Part shown: positions 1 to 46,399 of the stretch, piece after piece
Position numbering within the stretch: position 1 is the stretch's first letter
Layout of the letters: each line of letters starts with the position of its first letter
IMG/VR virus record: IMGVR_UViG_3300034082_004296
Coordinates: 96,001 to 160,000 of that record
DNA length: 64,000 nt
DNA from: a virus
Direction: 5' to 3' (one strand)
The notes under the pieces: generated by a model
What the model was told of the DNA's origin: nothing
Seen by the model: the letters and a program-made list of their open reading frames with translations, nothing else
The model's database searches: none
Program-made: the position numbers and the translations under genes

Positions 1-377
1 TTACTATATAGGATCGGCTCTTCTCTAGGATTTAGGATAATATGAACTATTATTTTTGGAACAGCTACTGTAGATCTACTCATTCTAGTATTAGCGTCTA
101 TACTGTATCCAAGTTTATCAAAGTTTATCTTTTCCCAAGGAAGACCCTCAAAGTGACTGTCTTCTTCTAAGTCAGGTGAAGAGTCTCTACGAACATTTAG
201 GATCAAATCAAAGGTAAATGGTTCAATAAATTCCATTCCAGAAAAAACAGAATACTCTGTGCTCTCACCTGTAGGTGAAGTACGAATCTTTGTGATTAGA
301 GTTTGAGCCAATCTTTTGATAAACTCTTCCTTGCTATCCACGTTTTCATTTATGAATTGATTGAAAGACTTAATCAT
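1..377 (-). CDS. Hypothetical protein, truncated at the window edge, with a capsid-targeting-like N-terminus (MIKSFNQFINE)
   Basis: Not in the ORF track. ATG at 375-377 overlaps the stop of the upstream gene (TAATG). The frame stays open to position 1: MIKSFNQFINENVDSKEEFIKRLAQ...REEPILYS. Confidence 0.8.
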   Translation of the reverse strand, partial: MIKSFNQFINENVDSKEEFIKRLAQTLITKIRTSPTGESTEYSVFSGMEFIEPFTFDLILNVRRDSSPDLEEDSHFEGLPWEKINFDKLGYSIDANTRMSRSTVAVPKIIVHIILNPREEPILYS

Positions 378-889
378 TATCTTTTATGTTTTACAAAAGT
401 CACCTCTATTTCATCAGTAGTAGGAGTACCGTTTGAAAAAACAACAGTAACATCTGGTAATTTCTTAGCAATTAGGTTGGCTGAAACTGCATTCTTTAAC
501 TTTTCAATAAATTGAAGATCATCGCTTGAAATATTTGTACGATCTCCCTTGATTATGTCTTCTAAACTCTTTTGACGAATCTCTATCTCCGGCTTATTTA
601 GGTCATTCTTATCTGAAGAAATAACGTTTTCTTTGATCCAGGCCTGCAACTTGTCCTTTTTAATTGAATAACAAGGATACTCTACCACAACGCTACCGTC
701 TGGATATTTTCTACGAGTTGTACCAGCATCTTCTGGCCCAGTCATGAATATAAACTTATACTCTACTGGCTTTGCGCCTGGTGCACCGGGTGTTCCTGGA
801 GCAGGCGGTGCCCCTGGCATCATTGGCGGGGCTGCCATATCTTGCTCAAATAAAAAATCAGAATATTTTTTGATGTGTTTATTTTTCAT
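377..889 (-). CDS. Hypothetical protein with a capsid-targeting-like N-terminus and a Pro-rich linker
   Basis: Track ORF 377..916. The likely start is the ATG at 889 (MKNKHIKKYSDFLFEQ), followed by MAAPPMMPGAPPAPGTPGAPGAKP. Confidence 0.75.
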   Translation of the reverse strand: MKNKHIKKYSDFLFEQDMAAPPMMPGAPPAPGTPGAPGAKPVEYKFIFMTGPEDAGTTRRKYPDGSVVVEYPCYSIKKDKLQAWIKENVISSDKNDLNKPEIEIRQKSLEDIIKGDRTNISSDDLQFIEKLKNAVSANLIAKKLPDVTVVFSNGTPTTDEIEVTFVKHKR

Positions 890-5935: not shown

Positions 5936-8320
<2,385 letters not shown>

Positions 8321-35342: not shown

Positions 35343-36128
35343 ATGAAAATATCAAATAACGAAAACATCAGAAACGAGAACGTTCAGGATATATTCCTTA
35401 GGAACGCTACTCTTACTATGCTTGATCTCCTAAACCGTCAGGTGATAATCGATCTAAAAAGAAACGATAAAGTCGAACAGTATGAGATTCCTTTCTTCTA
35501 TAACTTTGGTGGGGACGAAGGCTTTATGAAGGACTTTTTTATTGACCTGCCGACTGACTGCAAGTATCCAAACCATGCAGAAGGAAACTATGAACAGATG
35601 CCCAGAGGAATCGTCACTCTTTCTTCGTTTGCTATCAAACCATCAGATATCACAAATAAGTTTGTTCGAGGTAGTTTTAATCAAGAGATCCGGGATGAAA
35701 ACGATCAAAAAATGCTAAAGGCTTTTTCGGCTAGGCTTTTTACTCTACCGATGGCCTTGACCTTCAATATCAAGATAGAGAGCGATAACATCAATAAGAC
35801 ATTCAAGATCATGGAAAAGATCTTTGATTTTTATTATAAGAATCAGGTAAGATATTTCCAATTTAGAGGGGTCAGAGTGCCAGCACAAATAACTTTTCCG
35901 GAAACTGCACAGTTCACCAAGAGTTATAGCTTTGTGTACAGCGATGCAAACATCGTTAGCATCTCGCTTGACCTAAACATGGAGACTTACTTTCCTAGCT
36001 TTGACGATCACTCTAAGATGTATAAAGGCAACACAATTAAGCAGTTTAATCTTCGTGAAACCACAGGAGGAGATGATAGTGCGATCAGCGATAGTTGGAT
36101 AGACCAAGATTACCCACCGGCTGAATAA
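35343..36128 (+). CDS. Tail sheath stabiliser / tail terminator (T4 gp15-like)
   Basis: MPRGIV...PMALTFNIKI...IMEKIFDFY pattern; follows the gp14-like gene, as in T4. Confidence 0.65.
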   Translation: MKISNNENIRNENVQDIFLRNATLTMLDLLNRQVIIDLKRNDKVEQYEIPFFYNFGGDEGFMKDFFIDLPTDCKYPNHAEGNYEQMPRGIVTLSSFAIKPSDITNKFVRGSFNQEIRDENDQKMLKAFSARLFTLPMALTFNIKIESDNINKTFKIMEKIFDFYYKNQVRYFQFRGVRVPAQITFPETAQFTKSYSFVYSDANIVSISLDLNMETYFPSFDDHSKMYKGNTIKQFNLRETTGGDDSAISDSWIDQDYPPAE

Positions 36129-36139
36129 ATAATATTAGC

Positions 36140-36712
36140 ATGGAAGCAAGAATAAAAAGTTTTAGTCAGTTTATTGGAGAGTCTAGGATCTCAGAAAGCC
36201 TTCATTATCACATCGATAATGGGATAAGCATTGCCGAGTCAGTATTTAGGCCAGGATCGGACTCTCACATTCAACTCCTGACCGAGGCTCGAAAAAGTTT
36301 TTATGACGGTTTACTTATACTTGGAGTGCACGATCGTCGACTATTTGAATCGACTGATCTTGGTCTTACTGGAATATTTAACGGAGTTGTGGTCCCATTA
36401 GATCTTCCATTGGAAAACATTGACCTTAATGAGGAGAAGTCTCCTCGATTAGGCTATCCTAAGCGGGGAGGAGCCAAGAAATATCACGTTTATGTGAGAA
36501 ACCCCAAAACAAAAAAAATAATTAAGATCGCGTTTGGTGATGTGCATGGAGGACTCACAGCAAAGGTGTCCAATCCAAAAGCCAGAAAGTCATTTGCTGC
36601 TCGACACAACTGTGCTGAGAAGAAAGACCGAACTAAAGCTGGATATTGGGCATGTCGCATCAATCGCTACGCTCACCTATGGGGCGGAAAAACTTATCCT
36701 GGATTTTGGTAA
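36140..36712 (+). CDS. Putative head-internal protein (capsid-targeting tag; basic C-terminal domain ARKSFAARHNC...AGYWAC)
   Basis: Starts MEARIKSFSQFIGE; late motif at 36124-36131. Confidence 0.75.
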   Translation: MEARIKSFSQFIGESRISESLHYHIDNGISIAESVFRPGSDSHIQLLTEARKSFYDGLLILGVHDRRLFESTDLGLTGIFNGVVVPLDLPLENIDLNEEKSPRLGYPKRGGAKKYHVYVRNPKTKKIIKIAFGDVHGGLTAKVSNPKARKSFAARHNCAEKKDRTKAGYWACRINRYAHLWGGKTYPGFW

Positions 36713-37320
36713 TGAAACATCTATTAACATATCAACAATTATTTGAGGATGCGACTCAAGTAGAGTCTATACCTACAGAAAAAACTAAGATATCTGGCGG
36801 AGATATCATATTTTCTAAAAACAAGACGGCTCCTTTGCTCATGGTCTACGGTGGAATACCGGTTGGCGGAAAACAAAGTGGTGGAGAAAATGGTTACATG
36901 TGGAAATATGTAGATAAACTAAAAAACAAATACCACATATTCGTTGCATCAAACCATAGAGTAGACGGTGATTCTACATATAAAAGCGTTTTACAACAAT
37001 TAGAAAAATATGGAATAAAACCTTCATCAAAAGTACTATATCTTTTTTCTGGAGGATATCGTCCAGGTATGCCCATTTTAAAAAATAAGGCGGCCGATTT
37101 TTCTAAAGTCTTATTAGTTGATATTTGGATGAAGGGCTCAATTATCTCTGATTTTTATACTAAATTTGCTAAAGATAATTCGTCAAAAGTTAAATATTAT
37201 TACACTGATTTTGGTGCAAATAATTCAACCGCTCGAGATCTAATCGTCAAGATTGCAAGTACTTCAAAGAAAAAAACTGGTCACATGGAAACTAATGACG
37301 ATGCTGTTAGTTCACTATAG
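36712..37320 (+). CDS. Alpha/beta-hydrolase-like protein with a capsid-targeting tag
   Basis: Track ORF 36646..37320. The likely start is the ATG at 36712 (TAATG coupling; MKHLLTYQQLFE). Motifs LLMVYGG, LYLFSGG (nucleophile elbow-like), LLVD and a C-terminal GH. Confidence 0.55.
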   Translation: MKHLLTYQQLFEDATQVESIPTEKTKISGGDIIFSKNKTAPLLMVYGGIPVGGKQSGGENGYMWKYVDKLKNKYHIFVASNHRVDGDSTYKSVLQQLEKYGIKPSSKVLYLFSGGYRPGMPILKNKAADFSKVLLVDIWMKGSIISDFYTKFAKDNSSKVKYYYTDFGANNSTARDLIVKIASTSKKKTGHMETNDDAVSSL

Positions 37321-37336
37321 TAATAGATAAAGAAAC

Positions 37337-37609
37337 ATGAAACTGCCATTTGAAGAGACTCAAATAACCGACGACACTTATATTCGTGAGTTTTCACAAG
37401 AGTCCGATGTTAATGAATTTACCTGGCATAGGGATGATGAAGATAGAATGATAGTCGCGACTGAACCTACTGATTGGAAGATCCAATTAGAGAACAAGTT
37501 ACCTCAAGGATTAAGTTCAACCGTATTTATAGAACGAGGAGAGTGGCATAGATTAATAAAAGGAACAGGTAAGCTTACCGTAAAAATAACAAAAAGCGAT
37601 AACTCATGA
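37337..37609 (+). CDS. Cupin-fold protein
   Basis: WHRDDEDR and FIERGEWHRLIKG correspond to cupin motifs 1 and 2. Confidence 0.7.
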   Translation: MKLPFEETQITDDTYIREFSQESDVNEFTWHRDDEDRMIVATEPTDWKIQLENKLPQGLSSTVFIERGEWHRLIKGTGKLTVKITKSDNS

Positions 37610-38295
37610 AAAACCTATTAAAATACAATCAATTTTTGATTCTAGAACAAGGAACAAATTCTTGCCCATTGGCAACTCAAAATCTTGAGTTAAACACTAA
37701 AAATAGGAATAAGTCAATAGAGGCAGAATATATTCAATATGGCCCATTAAATTTGAATGATGAAGATTATTGGGCAAGGTACGCTAAAAAATGGAATACT
37801 GAGCCTGAAGTCGCAAAGAAATCTAATTGTGGAAACTGTGTAGCCTTTGATATTTCTCCAAGAATGGAAGCGTGCATGCCTGGTGAAGTCAGTGATCCTG
37901 AAGGAAGACTTGGTTACTGTTGGATGCACCATTTTAAGTGTCACTCTGCCCGTACTTGTTATACCTGGGCAGCAGGCGGACCTATTACAGAAGATCAAGT
38001 TTCAGCGGATTGGCAAAGTAAAAATGGAGGAGAGGTTAACGAAAAGAGAAAAACCAAAAATTCTCCAGACTGGCACGATTCAGATGCACCAGACGCTAAT
38101 GGAAAATTCAAAGAACTTGGAGTAAAGGAGCTAGCTAAATGGTTAATTAGAACTAGGGGTGGAGATATGCGTAAGATTACAGGAAGCTTAAATCAACAGA
38201 TAGTCTTTAACCGAAACGATAATCCAAGTTATGCTAAAAAGATGGAAAGCGTTCGTGCAGAAGTCAAACGACAGTTAGCTAAAAGAAAAAAATAA
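37606..38295 (+). CDS. Putative head-internal protein with a Cys-rich (HiPIP-like) domain and a basic C-terminal domain
   Basis: Starts MKNLLKYNQFLILE; contains CGNC...C...GYCWMHHFKCHSARTCYTW. Confidence 0.7.
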   Translation: MKNLLKYNQFLILEQGTNSCPLATQNLELNTKNRNKSIEAEYIQYGPLNLNDEDYWARYAKKWNTEPEVAKKSNCGNCVAFDISPRMEACMPGEVSDPEGRLGYCWMHHFKCHSARTCYTWAAGGPITEDQVSADWQSKNGGEVNEKRKTKNSPDWHDSDAPDANGKFKELGVKELAKWLIRTRGGDMRKITGSLNQQIVFNRNDNPSYAKKMESVRAEVKRQLAKRKK

Positions 38296-38301
38296 AAAGG
38301 G

Positions 38302-38766
38302 ATGATTCTTACATTTGAACAATACTGTATTCTTGAGAGCAAAAAACAAAAGGCTCATCCTAGAAAATATAAAGCACCAGAAGGAAGCTCTCGAGATAAG
38401 AAACTAGATAAAGCGCAAGACCTACTTAAATCTGGCAATAAAGAAGAGGCATACCGACTTCGAGACGATATGGAGAAAGCCGAACGAGAAAAGAAGGGCT
38501 GGAAAAATACTCCACGAAAAGACTCTAAAGTAAATGAAGCTAAATCGAATAACTTAAGTAAAGAAACACTTGCTAAGATTAGAGCAGTTGCAACTAAAAA
38601 AGGTTATTCATTTGCTGATTTAAAACGTGAATATATCAAAGGATTGGGTGCATTCTATTCTTCAGGTTCTAGACCAGGAATGACTGCTCATCAGTGGGCT
38701 ATGGCAAGAGTAAACTCAGCAAGTCCAAGTAAATCTTGGGCAAATGTCAAAAAAGTAAAAAAATAA
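38302..38766 (+). CDS. Basic putative head-internal protein
   Basis: Starts MILTFEQYCILE; Lys/Arg-rich; contains GLGAFYSSGSRPGMTAHQWAMARVN. Confidence 0.7.
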   Translation: MILTFEQYCILESKKQKAHPRKYKAPEGSSRDKKLDKAQDLLKSGNKEEAYRLRDDMEKAEREKKGWKNTPRKDSKVNEAKSNNLSKETLAKIRAVATKKGYSFADLKREYIKGLGAFYSSGSRPGMTAHQWAMARVNSASPSKSWANVKKVKK

Positions 38767-38769
38767 AAT

Positions 38770-39321
38770 ATGTTACTTAACGTAAGACAAAACGGATTTA
38801 TCTTTAACTTTCCACCGGACTTTTTTGCGCCTGAAATCAAGGAAAAATACAAGAAATATTATCAGAGTCTCATATTGCCATATGACACGATTGATGAATT
38901 TATGTCAGCCACGATTCAGTCTATCGACTTTCCTGGATGGACGATGGATCCTGCAACACAGACTCGACTATTTGGTAAACAACAAGAATACAAGAGTTCA
39001 AAGCAAGTGGTAGACTTGTTCACTCGAGAGTTTACCCTGACCTTTAAGCTTACTGATGCATACTTAAATTACTTTATTTTCTTAGAGAACTCTCTAAAAT
39101 ATCTGGATTTCAATAATAAGAACCAGCCGACGTTTTCTCCTATGCGACTATCCCTATTAGACAATGAGGGATATTTAGTCTCGTCAATCATTTTTAAGAG
39201 ACCGGTCCTAAAAAGCCAAGATGGTTTTAAACTATCATATAGTTCATCCACGCCAGACTTTACCACTTTTACTGCAAAATTTGTCTATTTTGATTTTGAT
39301 ATTGAGTTAGATTTTAATTAA
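38770..39321 (+). CDS. Tail tube-fold protein (T4 gp3/gp19/gp54-like)
   Basis: QSIDFPG...FTLTFKL...NYF...L.YS...FTAKFVY pattern. Confidence 0.55.
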   Translation: MLLNVRQNGFIFNFPPDFFAPEIKEKYKKYYQSLILPYDTIDEFMSATIQSIDFPGWTMDPATQTRLFGKQQEYKSSKQVVDLFTREFTLTFKLTDAYLNYFIFLENSLKYLDFNNKNQPTFSPMRLSLLDNEGYLVSSIIFKRPVLKSQDGFKLSYSSSTPDFTTFTAKFVYFDFDIELDFN

Positions 39322-42210: not shown

Positions 42211-43299
42211 TTATGGAACAAAATACAGCCTATTTGAGTCAGTCGAGCAATAATATACTGATTTTGGCGGTAGACCGGCCGACCCGTCTTGTAAGTTCAT
42301 GATCGAGAGTTGGTTTACAAATGTTGCACAAGACCTATTTGCAGTGATATTGCTTCCAACGATCATTGCTCGTGGACAGCCACCATCGCTATTTGAGTCT
42401 CCTCCAGCAATTATTGAATATCCTCCACTTGCAGTGTTGTTAAAACCGCCTGAAATAGTTGAATATCCTCCACTTGCAGTGTTGTTAATACCGCCTGAAA
42501 TAGTTGAATATCCTCCACTTGCAGTGTTACTTGTTCCTCCACCGATCGTTGCTGAATAGTATCCGCTTGCCGTGTTATTTCTACCACCTGCGATGGTTGA
42601 ATAGTTACCGCTTGCAGTATTGCTAGAACCGCCTCCTATTGTTTCGTTTCCATAATATGAGCTAGCTGTATTTGAAAATCCTCCGCCGATTGTTGAAAGG
42701 CCATAGTATGAACTAACTGTGTTTCCATATCCTCCGCCTATCGTTGAATAGTAAGAGCTCGCAGTATTAACAACGCCGCCGCCAACGCTAGAACCTATTC
42801 CGGATGCAGCATTAGAATAACCACCGCTAACAGTCGTTGCGATATTTGCTGCAAAGTTATTATATCCTCCGCTAACAGTAGTATAATCAGAACTAGCAAC
42901 GTTTAGTGCTCCGCCGGATACGACTGCGTAATATCCGCTTGCAGTGTTTGTAAATCCTCCACCGACCGTGTTTAAATCATTATTGCCTGCAGTGTTTCCA
43001 TATCCTCCGCTAACAGTCGAGGCATATCCGCTTGCAGTATTGTCATATCCGCCGCTAACCGTTGAATAGGTTGAGCTTGCAACATTTGAATTATCTATTC
43101 TATACGTTGATCCTGCGCCTGCACCTTCACTAACCGCTCCAGCTCCTTCAAGAAGCGTAATCGTACCTGCTGAGTCTATTTTTTTTAGTGCTCCTGCGTC
43201 GTCGAGATCAAAACCTATAAAGTAACTCCCTGCCTCTATTTGAGTGTAGTCAAGTGATGAAAACGAGACTTTAGGCATCTCCATTCCAGATCCGTACAT
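42211..43299 (-). CDS. Fibre/adhesin-like protein with 14-aa beta-roll repeats (STxxGGxxNTASGy), Tyr-rich
   Basis: About 17 tandem repeats; N-terminal domain shared with 43329..44510. Confidence 0.8.
   Translation of the reverse strand: MYGSGMEMPKVSFSSLDYTQIEAGSYFIGFDLDDAGALKKIDSAGTITLLEGAGAVSEGAGAGSTYRIDNSNVASSTYSTVSGGYDNTASGYASTVSGGYGNTAGNNDLNTVGGGFTNTASGYYAVVSGGALNVASSDYTTVSGGYNNFAANIATTVSGGYSNAASGIGSSVGGGVVNTASSYYSTIGGGYGNTVSSYYGLSTIGGGFSNTASSYYGNETIGGGSSNTASGNYSTIAGGRNNTASGYYSATIGGGTSNTASGGYSTISGGINNTASGGYSTISGGFNNTASGGYSIIAGGDSNSDGGCPRAMIVGSNITANRSCATFVNQLSIMNLQDGSAGLPPKSVYYCSTDSNRLYFVP
42414..42528. repeat. Near-perfect 42-bp tandem repeat (about 2.7 copies) inside the fibre gene
   Basis: The unit TTGAATATCCTCCACTTGCAGTGTTGTTAA(A/T)ACCGCCTGAAATAG is repeated. 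Confidence 0.85.
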
Positions 43300-43328: not shown

Positions 43329-44510
43329 TTATAATCGAACTCCTTCTATCGCAAAGGTTGTTTGATTATAATAGAAATATGTGTTTCCAGTGACTCCACC
43401 GGTGCCTATTGTGATTGCTGCAGTTGCTGCGGCTCTATCTACATAACTTGGTAAATTTAAGTTACTAAGTATAGTTGATCCAGATATAGCATTACATGAT
43501 CCAGCACACGTTCCTAAAGCAATCACATCGCTACCTGTATTGCAATAAGCAGATCGATATCCTGATGCAGTCACAGTATCTCCGGAATTTCCATATGCGG
43601 AACGATAACCCGATGCAGTTACATAGTTTCCAATATTATTACTTGCTGAAAGAAATCCAACTGCCGTGATAAGACTTCCAGTATTGCAATATGCTGAATT
43701 GCTTCCAACTGCCGTTACTTGATTGCCACTATTGAAGTATGATGAAAAGCTTCCTATTGCAGTAAGAACATCTCCAGTATTACAGTAACCAGAGTGAGTT
43801 CCAACAGTTACAACATTATTTCCTGTATTACAGTATGCTGAGTATGTTCCAACTGCTGCAATGTTGGATCCAGTGTTATGATATGCTGAGTATGTTCCAG
43901 ACGCAGTCGTATAATTTCCAGTATTACAGTATGCTGATCCTCTTCCTAGTGCAGATACACCGCTTCCAGTATTACACTGTGCAGAAAAGTAACCTGAAGC
44001 CGTCACATTATTCCCTGTGTTGCAATATGCTGAAAATGCACCAGTAGAAGTTACCTGACTTCCAGTATTTTGATAAGCTGCACTTTCTCCAAAAGCGGTT
44101 AACTTATTTCCAGTATTAAAGAATGCTGATTGATAGCCTGATGAGGTAACTCCCATCCCAGTGTTACAAAAAGATGAAGTTGCACCAATTGCGACCACTC
44201 CGTTTCCAGTATTGCATCGAGCTGCGTCTGTACCCAATGCAATTATGCTAGATCCAGTGTTTCCATCACCTGCACACGTACCTTGAAAGTTATTTCCATT
44301 TACAAGGTCATGGTTGAAATCTAAAACTTGTTGTAGTGTCGGAATTCCACCGCCTCCTTCAACAGTTGTGATATTTCCAAGATGATCCATCTTAGAAAGG
44401 ACACCAGAGTTATCTAGATCAAAACCTACAAAGTAGCTCCCGACAGGTATGTTTGAATAGGTGAGTGTTGCAAACGAGACTTTAGGTAATTCTATTCCAG
44501 ACTTATACAT
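43329..44510 (-). CDS. Fibre/adhesin-like protein with 16-aa repeats (NTGxxVTAxGxxSAYC)
   Basis: About 16 tandem repeats; PTLQQVL motif; N-terminal domain shared with 42211..43299. Confidence 0.8.
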   Translation of the reverse strand: MYKSGIELPKVSFATLTYSNIPVGSYFVGFDLDNSGVLSKMDHLGNITTVEGGGGIPTLQQVLDFNHDLVNGNNFQGTCAGDGNTGSSIIALGTDAARCNTGNGVVAIGATSSFCNTGMGVTSSGYQSAFFNTGNKLTAFGESAAYQNTGSQVTSTGAFSAYCNTGNNVTASGYFSAQCNTGSGVSALGRGSAYCNTGNYTTASGTYSAYHNTGSNIAAVGTYSAYCNTGNNVVTVGTHSGYCNTGDVLTAIGSFSSYFNSGNQVTAVGSNSAYCNTGSLITAVGFLSASNNIGNYVTASGYRSAYGNSGDTVTASGYRSAYCNTGSDVIALGTCAGSCNAISGSTILSNLNLPSYVDRAAATAAITIGTGGVTGNTYFYYNQTTFAIEGVRL

Positions 44511-44524
44511 AATTTTCTTATTTT

Positions 44525-46399
44525 TTAATATATCTTATTTAAAACAAATATTTCAGTAAAAATAAAATTCGCTGCGTTTGTTGAGTTAAATTGTGCAGTG
44601 ACATCCAGCTGATTAGGAATCGTTGTATCAAAAGTAGTTTGATTTAAAGTACTAAAATTATCACCTTCAAAGCTGCTACCTGCATTTTGAGTAAATGTAA
44701 AATAGCCCGAAGATAATAAACTAGCTGTTCCTGCAGTACCTAGCGATCTAACAGTAAAGGTTACATCAAAGGAAAAGTGTGAAGATGTAACATTTGGCAT
44801 ATTGATTGGACCGACTACCCCAAATTCAGCTGAACCTGACTTAACTCTCAATGTTAAGGTATCGCCATTGTTAGCACCTAAATCTCCAGATATTCTTACA
44901 GCAAATGAATCGCCTACGCTAAACCCATTTGAAGGTACAGATAATGAACCTATTCCGCTACCGATTAGACTCAATTCTGAGAGCGTGCCTGATATTGTTG
45001 TGCTATTGCTAGTTTGTGCAAATAGACCATAAACAGTTGGTCCAGGAATAGTCTTGTACTTAACTATCCCACTGACTGCGTCCCTTACTAGATAATTAGT
45101 AGCAGCCTGATCCTGAGTAGGGGTGTTGACTATTGCTAAGTTATTTACGTGAAAGGTGTTTGCCTGTATAGCATTTATGTTACAGCCAAATATTCCAGAA
45201 AAACTGCAGCTTGCCGTGTTTCCGCAACCTCCAAGTATAGCCGAATAGCAACCTGAAGCGACATTGCATTTGCCTACTAAGACAGCTGAATAGTGTGCAC
45301 TCGCAGTATTGCGACATCCTCCAAGTATTGATGAGTTACAACCTGATGAAGTATTGCAATATCCTCCACTAACGGTAGATGACCAGGCAGTCGCTCGGTT
45401 TTGTGAACCTCCACTAACTGTTGCATAAGTATTCGAAGATGTGTTAGCAAAACCTCCACCAACTGTTGATGTTGCGCCAGATGCAGCATTATTATATCCT
45501 CCGCTAATAGCTGAGTCATAACCAGAAGCCGTGTTAGATCGTCCGCCTCCAATTGTTGAACATCTTGCACTTGCAGTATTATTACAGCCACCAGCAATTG
45601 TCGAAGCTAATCCACTTGCAGTATTACCGCGCCCTCCTCCAAGTGAAGACCATGCACCAGTAGCACAAGCTGTGTTACACTCTCCACCACTGACTATTGA
45701 TCCAGCTGAATATACTGCATTCAATCGACCTCCTCCAATTGTTGAATAAGATGAGCTTGCTGTATTGCAATATCCTCCGCTGATTACTGAACCGTTTCCA
45801 CAAGTTTGATTTGCTTTATTGCAACATCCGCCACCAACGGTCGAACCAGTTCCACCTGCAATATTACTACATCCTCCGCCAATTGTAGAATAGCTAAATG
45901 ACGCAGTATTACACATTCCCCCACTGACAATTGAACTCTGCCCACTTGCAGTATTGCCGCGTCCTCCTGAGACGGTTGTAAAAACGTTACTTGCACAGTT
46001 TATCGCTCCTCCGCCTATTGTTGAATTTCCGCTAGTTGTGACGTTATTACATCCTCCACTAATAGTCGCTGCGTATCCACTTGCGGTGTTACATATTCCT
46101 CCGCTAAGCGTTGAATAATTACTGCTAGCAATATTACATTTACCGCCAGAAACAGTTGAGCCTGCACCGCTTGCTGTGTTACATGTATCTATTCTATAGG
46201 TTGAACATAGTCCTGCACCAACATCTATTACTCCACCACTGCTTCCAACTACGCTCTCTATTCCAGTGTCATCCAGACAATACCAACAACCATCTGATTT
46301 AGCGTAAATCTTACTGTATCCCAGTTCTGGTGGCACAGGAGTCGATGCGACTTTTTTATGTTGAGGGATGCTATGATTTTTCTTTCCTTGGTATGGCAT
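44525..46399 (-). CDS. Cys-rich 14-aa beta-roll fibre with a C-terminal globular (BclA/TNF-like) domain
   Basis: More than 20 repeats of STxxGGxCNTAS; C-terminal beta-sandwich beginning YGLFAQ. Confidence 0.8.
   Translation of the reverse strand: MPYQGKKNHSIPQHKKVASTPVPPELGYSKIYAKSDGCWYCLDDTGIESVVGSSGGVIDVGAGLCSTYRIDTCNTASGAGSTVSGGKCNIASSNYSTLSGGICNTASGYAATISGGCNNVTTSGNSTIGGGAINCASNVFTTVSGGRGNTASGQSSIVSGGMCNTASFSYSTIGGGCSNIAGGTGSTVGGGCCNKANQTCGNGSVISGGYCNTASSSYSTIGGGRLNAVYSAGSIVSGGECNTACATGAWSSLGGGRGNTASGLASTIAGGCNNTASARCSTIGGGRSNTASGYDSAISGGYNNAASGATSTVGGGFANTSSNTYATVSGGSQNRATAWSSTVSGGYCNTSSGCNSSILGGCRNTASAHYSAVLVGKCNVASGCYSAILGGCGNTASCSFSGIFGCNINAIQANTFHVNNLAIVNTPTQDQAATNYLVRDAVSGIVKYKTIPGPTVYGLFAQTSNSTTISGTLSELSLIGSGIGSLSVPSNGFSVGDSFAVRISGDLGANNGDTLTLRVKSGSAEFGVVGPINMPNVTSSHFSFDVTFTVRSLGTAGTASLLSSGYFTFTQNAGSSFEGDNFSTLNQTTFDTTIPNQLDVTAQFNSTNAANFIFTEIFVLNKIY

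Follow-up and report, generated by a model that had tools for sequence, protein, structure and literature searches.

A variable locus of leader-tagged, multi-module proteins, probably protease-processed capsid cargo, in a divergent aquatic T4-like phage

We analyzed five adjacent genes, here called g1 to g5, in a viral DNA stretch of 64,000 nucleotides (the window), which represents bases 96001-160000 of a 176-kb IMG/VR virus contig with an estimated completeness of ~70%. The genes lie on the same strand and occupy window positions 36140-38766. The best reading of this locus is that it is the equivalent of the internal-protein locus of T-even phages, that is, a fast-changing cassette of capsid cargo with multi-module precursors. 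It is likely, in our judgment, that the products are targeted to the capsid and processed by a protease, with cleavage between modules. The analysis established the genes themselves, their N-terminal leaders, the hydrophobic-x-Glu sites within three of them, the borders of the modules, the shuffling of modules at Glu junctions in relatives, a protease gene, a scaffold rich in the same sites, and the hydrolase fold of one product.

The source virus is a very divergent aquatic T4-like myovirus. Recognizable in its genome are a gp23-type capsid protein, a T4-type large terminase, and a baseplate wedge protein, and it also encodes a neck protein, a gp15-like protein, and a gp21-type prohead protease. 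A blastn search of the region against GenBank phages gave no match, and relatives were detected at the protein level only. These included Flavobacterium phage immuto, Methylophilales phage Melnitz, Tenacibaculum phage pT24, and Pelagibacter phage HTVC008M. Related loci in IMG/VR number at least 80, with 44-98% identity, and some of them sit on complete genomes of ~271 kb.

According to the reading that we favor, the short N-terminal leader (aromatic-x-x-aromatic/Leu, then [LIV]-x-Glu) would bring each tagged product into the scaffold core of the prohead, and a gp21-family prohead protease would cut behind the leader Glu. A second cut would fall after the linker hydrophobic-x-Glu in g1, g4, and probably g5, so that two mature pieces per gene would result. 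Most of these pieces are strongly basic and would probably associate with the packaged DNA, either as counter-ions or by binding it. One piece would be a Ser-Asp-His alpha/beta hydrolase and another a Cys-rich, probably metal-binding domain, while an untagged cupin-like protein would probably bind the g1 N-module as a passenger or helper. Packaging, cleavage, ejection, and the role of each piece are steps that we infer.

Four of the five genes carry leaders that match the T4 capsid-targeting pattern, as an earlier note on this DNA had stated. In the T4 capsid-targeting sequence (CTS), targeting depends on residues 4 and 7 and processing on residues 8 and 10, with gp21 cleaving behind L/I-x-E (PMC9026906). 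A strict leader pattern, [FYW]xx[FYW][LIVM]xE, was written a priori from this description. The leaders are MEARIKSFSQFIGE in g1 (aa 1-14, with a second site, ISE, at 19), MKHLLTYQQLFE in g2 (aa 1-12), MKNLLKYNQFLILE in g4 (aa 1-14), and MILTFEQYCILE in g5 (aa 1-12); g3 has no leader. That of g1 fits the strict pattern exactly, those of g4 and g5 fit with one extra residue, and that of g2 reads Y-x-x-L-F-E. The start of g2 at ATG 36712 is backed by relatives that begin with the same leader. Across the genome, 9 of 209 open reading frames (ORFs) have the strict pattern starting at one of their first 13 residues, where ~0.56 would be expected from the internal rate outside the scaffold (Poisson P ~1e-8). 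Likewise, [LIVM]NE was seen 24 times in the first 25 residues versus 4.9 expected, and looser versions of the leader were recognized by eye on ~25-30 ORFs across the 176-kb contig. The leader is conserved at the amino-acid level while the bodies behind it are unrelated. Because of the genome-wide N-terminal enrichment and the fit to a pattern derived from T4, we regard the leader, as judged from sequence, as real and T4-like. Strict leaders are also present on two ORFs outside the cassette, MKNKHIKKYSDFLFE at window 377-889 (minus strand) and MIKSFNQFINE at G000:C1:95628-96377 (minus strand), the latter just before the window.

A gp21-type protease fused to a scaffold is encoded ~38.5 kb before the window start (G000:C1:55494-57485). 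The Peptidase_S77 domain (PF03420, gp21 family; E 1.2e-12, 44.3 bits, above the cut-off; G000:C1:55503-55952) stands at the start of an open frame of ~660 residues, the C-terminal part of which is scaffold-like. In this scaffold region there are six [LIVM]NE sites, of which four read K-[LV]-N-E-S, as well as a tandem array of ~11 repeats of 14 residues, all with a terminal [FY]xx[FY][LIV]xE. Genome-wide, the strict leader pattern has 18 internal matches, and 8 of these are such repeats. Because the scaffold repeats carry the leader pattern, the leader in this lineage resembles a single scaffold repeat. This suggests that, in this lineage, cargo would be loaded by co-assembly and released by the cuts that remove the scaffold. 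The same protease-scaffold fusion with the same repeats is found in a complete 271-kb relative (locus L090), and Melnitz, immuto, pT24, and a 271-kb relative likewise encode a Peptidase_S77 protease.

Three of the tagged proteins contain a further (L/V)NE site. These are IDLNE/EKSPR at E98 of g1 (codon 36431-36433, plus strand), GEVNE/KRKTK at E146 of g4 (38041-38043, plus strand), and SKVNE/AKSNN at E79 of g5 (38536-38538, plus strand), where the slash marks the putative cut. The case for these internal sites rests on their placement and their behavior in relatives, not on their number. The placement of all three at module boundaries, as originally proposed, is supported by homology limits, by shuffled architectures, and, in g4, by a low-confidence linker in the AlphaFold2 (AF2) model.

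In g1 (36140-36712, plus strand; 190 aa), the leader is followed by an acidic N-module (aa 20-98), the junction at E98, and a very basic C-module (aa 99-190; phrog_7595). Both phrog_7595 and many stand-alone homologs cover only g1 residues ~88/98-173, and the C-module occurs alone in HTVC008M, in pelagiphage and roseophage podoviruses, in siphoviruses, and in an archaeal spindle-shaped virus. In 49 of 49 non-redundant full-length relatives, and in immuto and Melnitz as well, a Glu stands before the C-module with L/I/V/M/F two residues before it. The junction appears as LNE, IFE, LDE, VLE, LFE, ISE, or MME, and the linker varies in both length and sequence, indels included. The residue after the junction Glu is A/E/G/S in the 49 relatives, and HTVC008M has LEE at the corresponding position. 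Leaderless g1 relatives begin exactly at the predicted mature N terminus (MSPNLQYH), and the 271-kb relatives have an extra module of ~135 residues, with its own leader, fused upstream of g1 via an MSE junction.

The product of g4 (37606-38295, plus strand; 229 aa) consists of the leader, a Cys-rich domain (g4N; aa 15-146), the junction at E146, and a basic helical C-module (g4C; aa 147-229). The C-module has the same first residues everywhere it was seen (K/A-R/K-K-T/P-K ... PDWHD), and what precedes it varies. In relatives it follows GEVNE, KIEE, or EVSE linkers, stands directly behind the leader Glu (FITE/ARKTK and LITE/AKKPK), comes after leader plus GEVNE with the Cys domain deleted, or lies behind unrelated modules that end in an internal leader. 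For comparison, hydrophobic-x-Glu has a background rate of 0.0225 per position. The Cys-rich domain has >2,200 relatives. In the list of the best 120, proteins without a g4C-type module are mostly ~140 aa long and end at most ~20 residues past a conserved GGPI, at about the E146 position. The AF2 model of g4 shows two folded parts, with values of the predicted local distance difference test (pLDDT) below 50 at residues 143-162.

In g5 (38302-38766, plus strand; 154 aa), the leader is followed by a basic N-part (aa 13-79), the site at E79, and a basic core (aa 80-154). Pfam DUF5824 (PF19141; 37.2 bits versus a cut-off of 25, E 4e-9) matches residues 28-139, and phrog_28338 matches residues 86-139. 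The site reads V/I-(N/D/T/H)-E in every relative seen; the matches listed in the large g5 search were all close relatives of at least 78% identity, with distant DUF5824 members lying outside that set. The DUF5824 core stands directly behind a leader (MLNFNQWLN..INE/S) in three loci (L007, L009, and L014) and behind an internal leader in others. Because DUF5824 spans both halves of g5, its border is the least certain of the three. The earlier claim that each site separates two dissimilar modules is therefore weakest for g5. No mention of DUF5824 was found in the literature. In addition, a small module of ~50 residues (..HGKVWKVYSKKK..GTH.T.EKAV.QL.AIE..) is fused in frame before the internal leader of g5- or g4C-type proteins at L008:6820-7443, L033:6818-7444, and L022:5663-6127, which could reflect either gene fusion or an alternative start.

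Comparison of architectures, a check proposed in the earlier note, showed that modules do reshuffle at the Glu junctions in related phages. Gene 18 of Melnitz (Melnitz-3, L004:1519-3471), annotated as hypothetical, encodes 650 residues behind a single leader (MKKFSEIIE). Its five or six modules are arranged in the order nucleotidyltransferase-like, small Cys, DUF5824, g1N, and g1C, the junctions carry hydrophobic-x-Glu, and a cupin gene follows.

Several points weigh against cleaved capsid cargo as the explanation. The internal [LIVM]NE count is marginal, with 3 in the 675 residues of the four proteins versus 0.89 expected (P(>=3) = 0.06). With so short a motif, the fold of the downstream module could in part account for the conserved Glu, and the g5 site may lie inside one functional unit, with DUF5824 covering both halves. 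Some 25-30 tagged ORFs per ~200 would mean a cargo load far above that of T4. The g1 C-module and the Cys-rich domain are also present in podoviruses, siphoviruses, and an archaeal virus, so that these two have a function independent of this route; use of a gp21-type protease is not known from these groups. The scaffolds of Melnitz, immuto, and pT24 are separate proteins of the ordinary acidic kind, devoid of leader-like repeats, and the scaffold-repeat idea is thus confined to the present lineage. Finally, neither virion proteomes nor N-terminal data turned up in a literature search for this phage and its relatives. In the literature on Melnitz, HTVC008M, immuto, and the Tenacibaculum phages, we found no mention of capsid-targeting leaders and, for Melnitz and HTVC008M, no link to internal proteins.

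It is possible that the proteins are tagged and packaged and lose their leaders while the internal sites stay uncut, g1, g4, and g5 remaining two-domain proteins. Hydrophobic-x-Glu would then be a structural or linker feature, or a relic of fusion between genes that were once separately tagged. Full leaders inside fused relatives (for example, KFSEWVEINE before the DUF5824 core and ILNYDDFLTE before g4C) do look like fusion fossils, and the extent of DUF5824 across the g5 site fits this explanation as well. In addition, gp21-type proteases, as known from T4, cut accessible sites only, and many hydrophobic-x-Glu motifs in folded proteins stay uncut. However, the junction motif is kept in 49/49 g1 relatives despite indels, even in lineages that show no leader remnant. 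The g4 site lies within a predicted disordered stretch, and g4C has the same first residue whether it follows a leader Glu or a linker Glu. On balance, we consider it rather unlikely that the internal sites are spared.

Alternatively, the N-terminal motif may be no capsid address at all and may have a different late role, for example in binding to membranes, in efficient translation, or as a mark recognized by the phage's own chaperonin, on proteins that do not enter the virion. The number of tagged ORFs, higher than in any known T4-type set of internal proteins, would be easier to understand in this way, as would the occurrence of some modules in phage groups from which no use of a gp21-type protease is known. 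Against it, the motif keeps the experimentally defined spacing of the T4 CTS, with the gp21 cut motif at its end, copies of it recur in the protease-linked scaffold, and it is conserved at the amino-acid level on unrelated bodies, which makes a role outside the capsid improbable. A further possibility is chance: these would be ordinary small hypothetical genes whose N termini and NE tripeptides mean nothing. The NE count taken by itself (P = 0.06) would permit this, whereas the N-terminal enrichment (P ~1e-8), the column-wise conservation of the g1 junction, and module shuffling exactly at Glu already contradict it, and we give it hardly any weight. The earlier proposal of packaged, protease-released proteins gains partial support, from module reshuffling at Glu, from the presence of the right protease, and from a scaffold full of the same sites.

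Beyond the cleaved-cargo reading itself, a broader interpretation may tentatively be put forward, although we would not call it probable. The capsid address would be one copy of the 14-residue scaffold repeat, so that cargo joins the scaffold lattice and is freed by the cuts that dismantle it. Modules strung together through leader or linker cut sites would then form a combinatorial "cut-here" grammar across many aquatic T4-like phages, with Melnitz (five or six modules behind one leader) as the extreme, and untagged proteins like g3 would ride in bound to a tagged module.

As for the nature of the cargo, g2 (36712-37320, plus strand; 202 aa) comprises a leader and an alpha/beta-hydrolase domain, bearing out the hydrolase-like fold noted before. 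The AF2 model (mean pLDDT 92.4) has an alpha/beta hydrolase fold, and Foldseek matched it with probability 1.00 and TM-scores of 0.5-0.58 to esterases, dehalogenases, and DPP-type hydrolases. A Ser-Asp-His triad (S113, D137, and H191) is invariant in 38 diverse sequences, in the same order as in alpha/beta hydrolases. By predicted fold and triad, g2 is thus an alpha/beta hydrolase and a predicted enzyme. Its relatives, among them P0010, P0012, P0017, P0034, and P0041, are often fused to PG_binding_1 (PF01471), and it is possible that g2 acts on the cell envelope at entry. The family has at least six leader variants, as well as leaderless forms of ~190 aa, and is found in some of the related cassettes only.

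The Cys-rich domain that had been noticed in the cassette is g4N, which has 7 invariant Cys and probably binds metal. The name high-potential iron-sulfur protein (HiPIP), which comes only from GenBank annotations of distant phage homologs, was rejected as unproven for this domain, as it has no Pfam match and no PDB sequence or profile match to a HiPIP. A Foldseek search with the g4 model, itself weak (pLDDT 68), gave no match, HiPIP included. Very basic domains were also confirmed, with net charges of +19 for g1C, +12 for g4C, +9 for g5N, and +13 for g5C.

The remaining gene, g3 (37337-37609, plus strand; 90 aa), encodes a small cupin-like protein. It had been described as an untagged cupin; untagged it is, and a small cupin is its candidate identity, as a lead only. 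The nearest named Atlas cluster scores 0.95 and has Cupin_2 on 16% of its members, a TehB-like cluster scores 0.91, and g3 has neither a Pfam match nor a PDB sequence match. Its invariant residues are W30 H31 D33 E35 R37 ... H71 R72. The cupin-like gene always accompanies the g1 homolog, in 80 IMG/VR loci and in immuto, Melnitz, and pT24. Because the two genes are neighbors in four phage lineages, whether their products interact was an open question, and it was addressed by complex prediction. The g1-g3 model scored 0.64 (median of 3 runs) versus 0.01 for the best control. Among solved complexes, 58 of 80 attain this mark, and among mismatched pairs 2 of 110 do; the counts hold only roughly here, as our own alignments were used. 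Contact agreement between runs was at least 52%, with partner pLDDT of at least 82. The predicted interface joins g1 residues 19-42 (including invariant R37 and S40) to a conserved face of g3 (W30, Q50, 52-56, and 70). The model thus predicts that g3 binds the g1 N-module, which could provide a route into the head for an untagged protein or, alternatively, reflect an action on g1.

The cassette is compact, with spacings from g1 to g5 of -1, +16, -4, and +6 nucleotides (nt), followed by +3 nt to the next gene. Upstream lies a gene for a gp15-like tail completion or sheath stabilizer protein (35343..36128, plus strand), which matches Pfam T4-gp15_tss just under the cut-off (E 2.2e-5; 24.2 bits versus 25) and is kept upstream of g1 in loci L005-L041 and L070. 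Downstream lies a possible gp3-type tail tube terminator (38770..39321, plus strand); its sequence weakly matches that of a gp3 tube terminator in the PDB (E 0.15; query 36-181 to chain 21-169 of 176), and this gene is conserved after the cassette in relatives. The placement of five genes between a gp15-like and a tail-tube-fold gene was therefore correct for the five genes and the upstream flank, whereas the downstream flank is only weakly gp3-like. The term "late operon" fared similarly. Same strand and close spacing were borne out; the word ATAAATA, resembling a T4 late promoter, does occur 9 nt before the g1 start (36125..36131, plus strand; a weak feature), yet it is not enriched across the window (36 seen versus 31 expected). 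For this reason we claim no promoter there, and "late" refers to position and strand alone.

Between the gp15-like and gp3-like flanks of relatives, g1 and the cupin-like gene are constant. The genes g2, g4, and g5 are present or absent, or differ in architecture, from one close relative to the next while the flanks stay, and in other lineages the g1-cupin pair is found in different gene neighborhoods. Searches of Pfam, NCBIfam, and PHROGs returned no family for g2, g3, g4, or the downstream gene.

Some other features were observed during the analysis. Three paralogous fiber-like genes lie on the minus strand at window 42211-43299, 43329-44510, and 44525-46399, the first two with similar N termini. 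UspA1-type adhesin repeats were significant in the first (E 1.4e-16, above the cut-off) and weak in the third (E 1.7e-4, below it), and none were found in the second. A 541-aa ORF at window 5936-7561 (minus strand) has an N terminus that looks GroEL-like by eye, and an ORF at G000:C1:92424-92723 looks GroES-like by eye. Gene 170 of immuto (L003:4534-4971) is annotated as "NAD synthetase" and resembles a GIY-YIG-type endonuclease by eye; the label is probably a mis-annotation.

If our reading is true, the T4 system of capsid targeting and protease release would reach far beyond the T-evens, into abundant marine and freshwater phages, namely, relatives of the SAR11 phage HTVC008M, the OM43 phage Melnitz, and Flavobacterium phages. 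The locus would represent a simple way of building and reshuffling injected or DNA-bound cargo from small modules. The leader together with the hydrophobic-x-Glu junction is a candidate rule that, pending proteomic confirmation, may predict virion cargo and mature ends in thousands of unannotated metagenomic phage genes. The predicted cargo can be assayed, as it includes a Ser-Asp-His hydrolase, a Cys-rich domain, and basic DNA-binding pieces, and mimicry of the scaffold repeat offers a testable idea of how the address might work.

Several known systems share some of these properties. The head and inner-body (ejection) proteins of phiKZ, 201phi2-1, and SPN3US are cut after Glu at several sites per protein, with redundant propeptide sites, by diverged gp21 homologs (PMC9026906). 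The resemblance lies in the many head cargo proteins and the several Glu cut sites per protein. In that group, however, the motif is S/A-x-E rather than L/I/V-x-E, no common short N-terminal leader has been described, the phages are unrelated in sequence, and the cargo consists of large proteins instead of small basic modules strung together. In polyvalent proteins (Iyer et al. 2017), several modules are combined in one polypeptide, which is predicted to accompany the DNA and to be set free by proteolytic cleavage (PMC5512222). What they share with the present proteins is several unrelated modules in one polypeptide, a likeness of polyprotein logic only. Polyvalent proteins are large, with 2-15 mostly enzymatic conflict domains and often a peptidase domain of their own, whereas the modules described here are small and mostly basic, and their release would rely on the head protease. 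Membership in that class was rejected, as the cassette proteins are 154-229 aa long and Pfam, PHROG, and NCBIfam scans found no peptidase or conflict-enzyme family. Internal core proteins of the T7 gp16 type lie inside the capsid and have a cell-wall-degrading domain. In g2 we see a similar candidate, an enzyme inside the capsid that could act on the envelope at entry and whose relatives carry PG_binding_1, with the difference that it is an alpha/beta hydrolase and not a lytic transglycosylase.

The closest counterpart is found in T4 and the T-evens, whose internal proteins are leader-tagged, hypervariable, and cut at L/I-x-E by gp21 (PMC9026906, PMC3012670). The T4 internal proteins are basic, their lysines contact DNA, and the T-even internal-protein loci vary between close relatives (PMC3012670). 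As in IPI, IPII, IPIII, and Alt, the leader here is short, with aromatics three apart followed by [LI]-x-Glu, and a gp21-family protease is encoded. Unrelated, often basic bodies behind a shared leader and a variable locus among late genes are further points in common. No body resembles a T4 internal protein in sequence, in that no internal-protein family was returned by Pfam, PHROG, or NCBIfam scans. Unlike in T4, the leaders here are 12-19 residues long, in many cases with x-N-E at the end, the products of several genes consist of two modules (up to five or six in relatives) joined by cut motifs or internal leaders, ~25-30 ORFs are tagged, and the protease is fused to a scaffold of leader-like 14-residue repeats. 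The earlier description of the cassette as an undescribed system was therefore overstated, as the principle of an address plus a protease is already known from T4. New features are precursors of two to many modules in which every junction carries a cut motif or internal leader, the large number of tagged ORFs, the fusion of the protease to leader-like scaffold repeats, the families of modules, and the phage lineage in which they are found.

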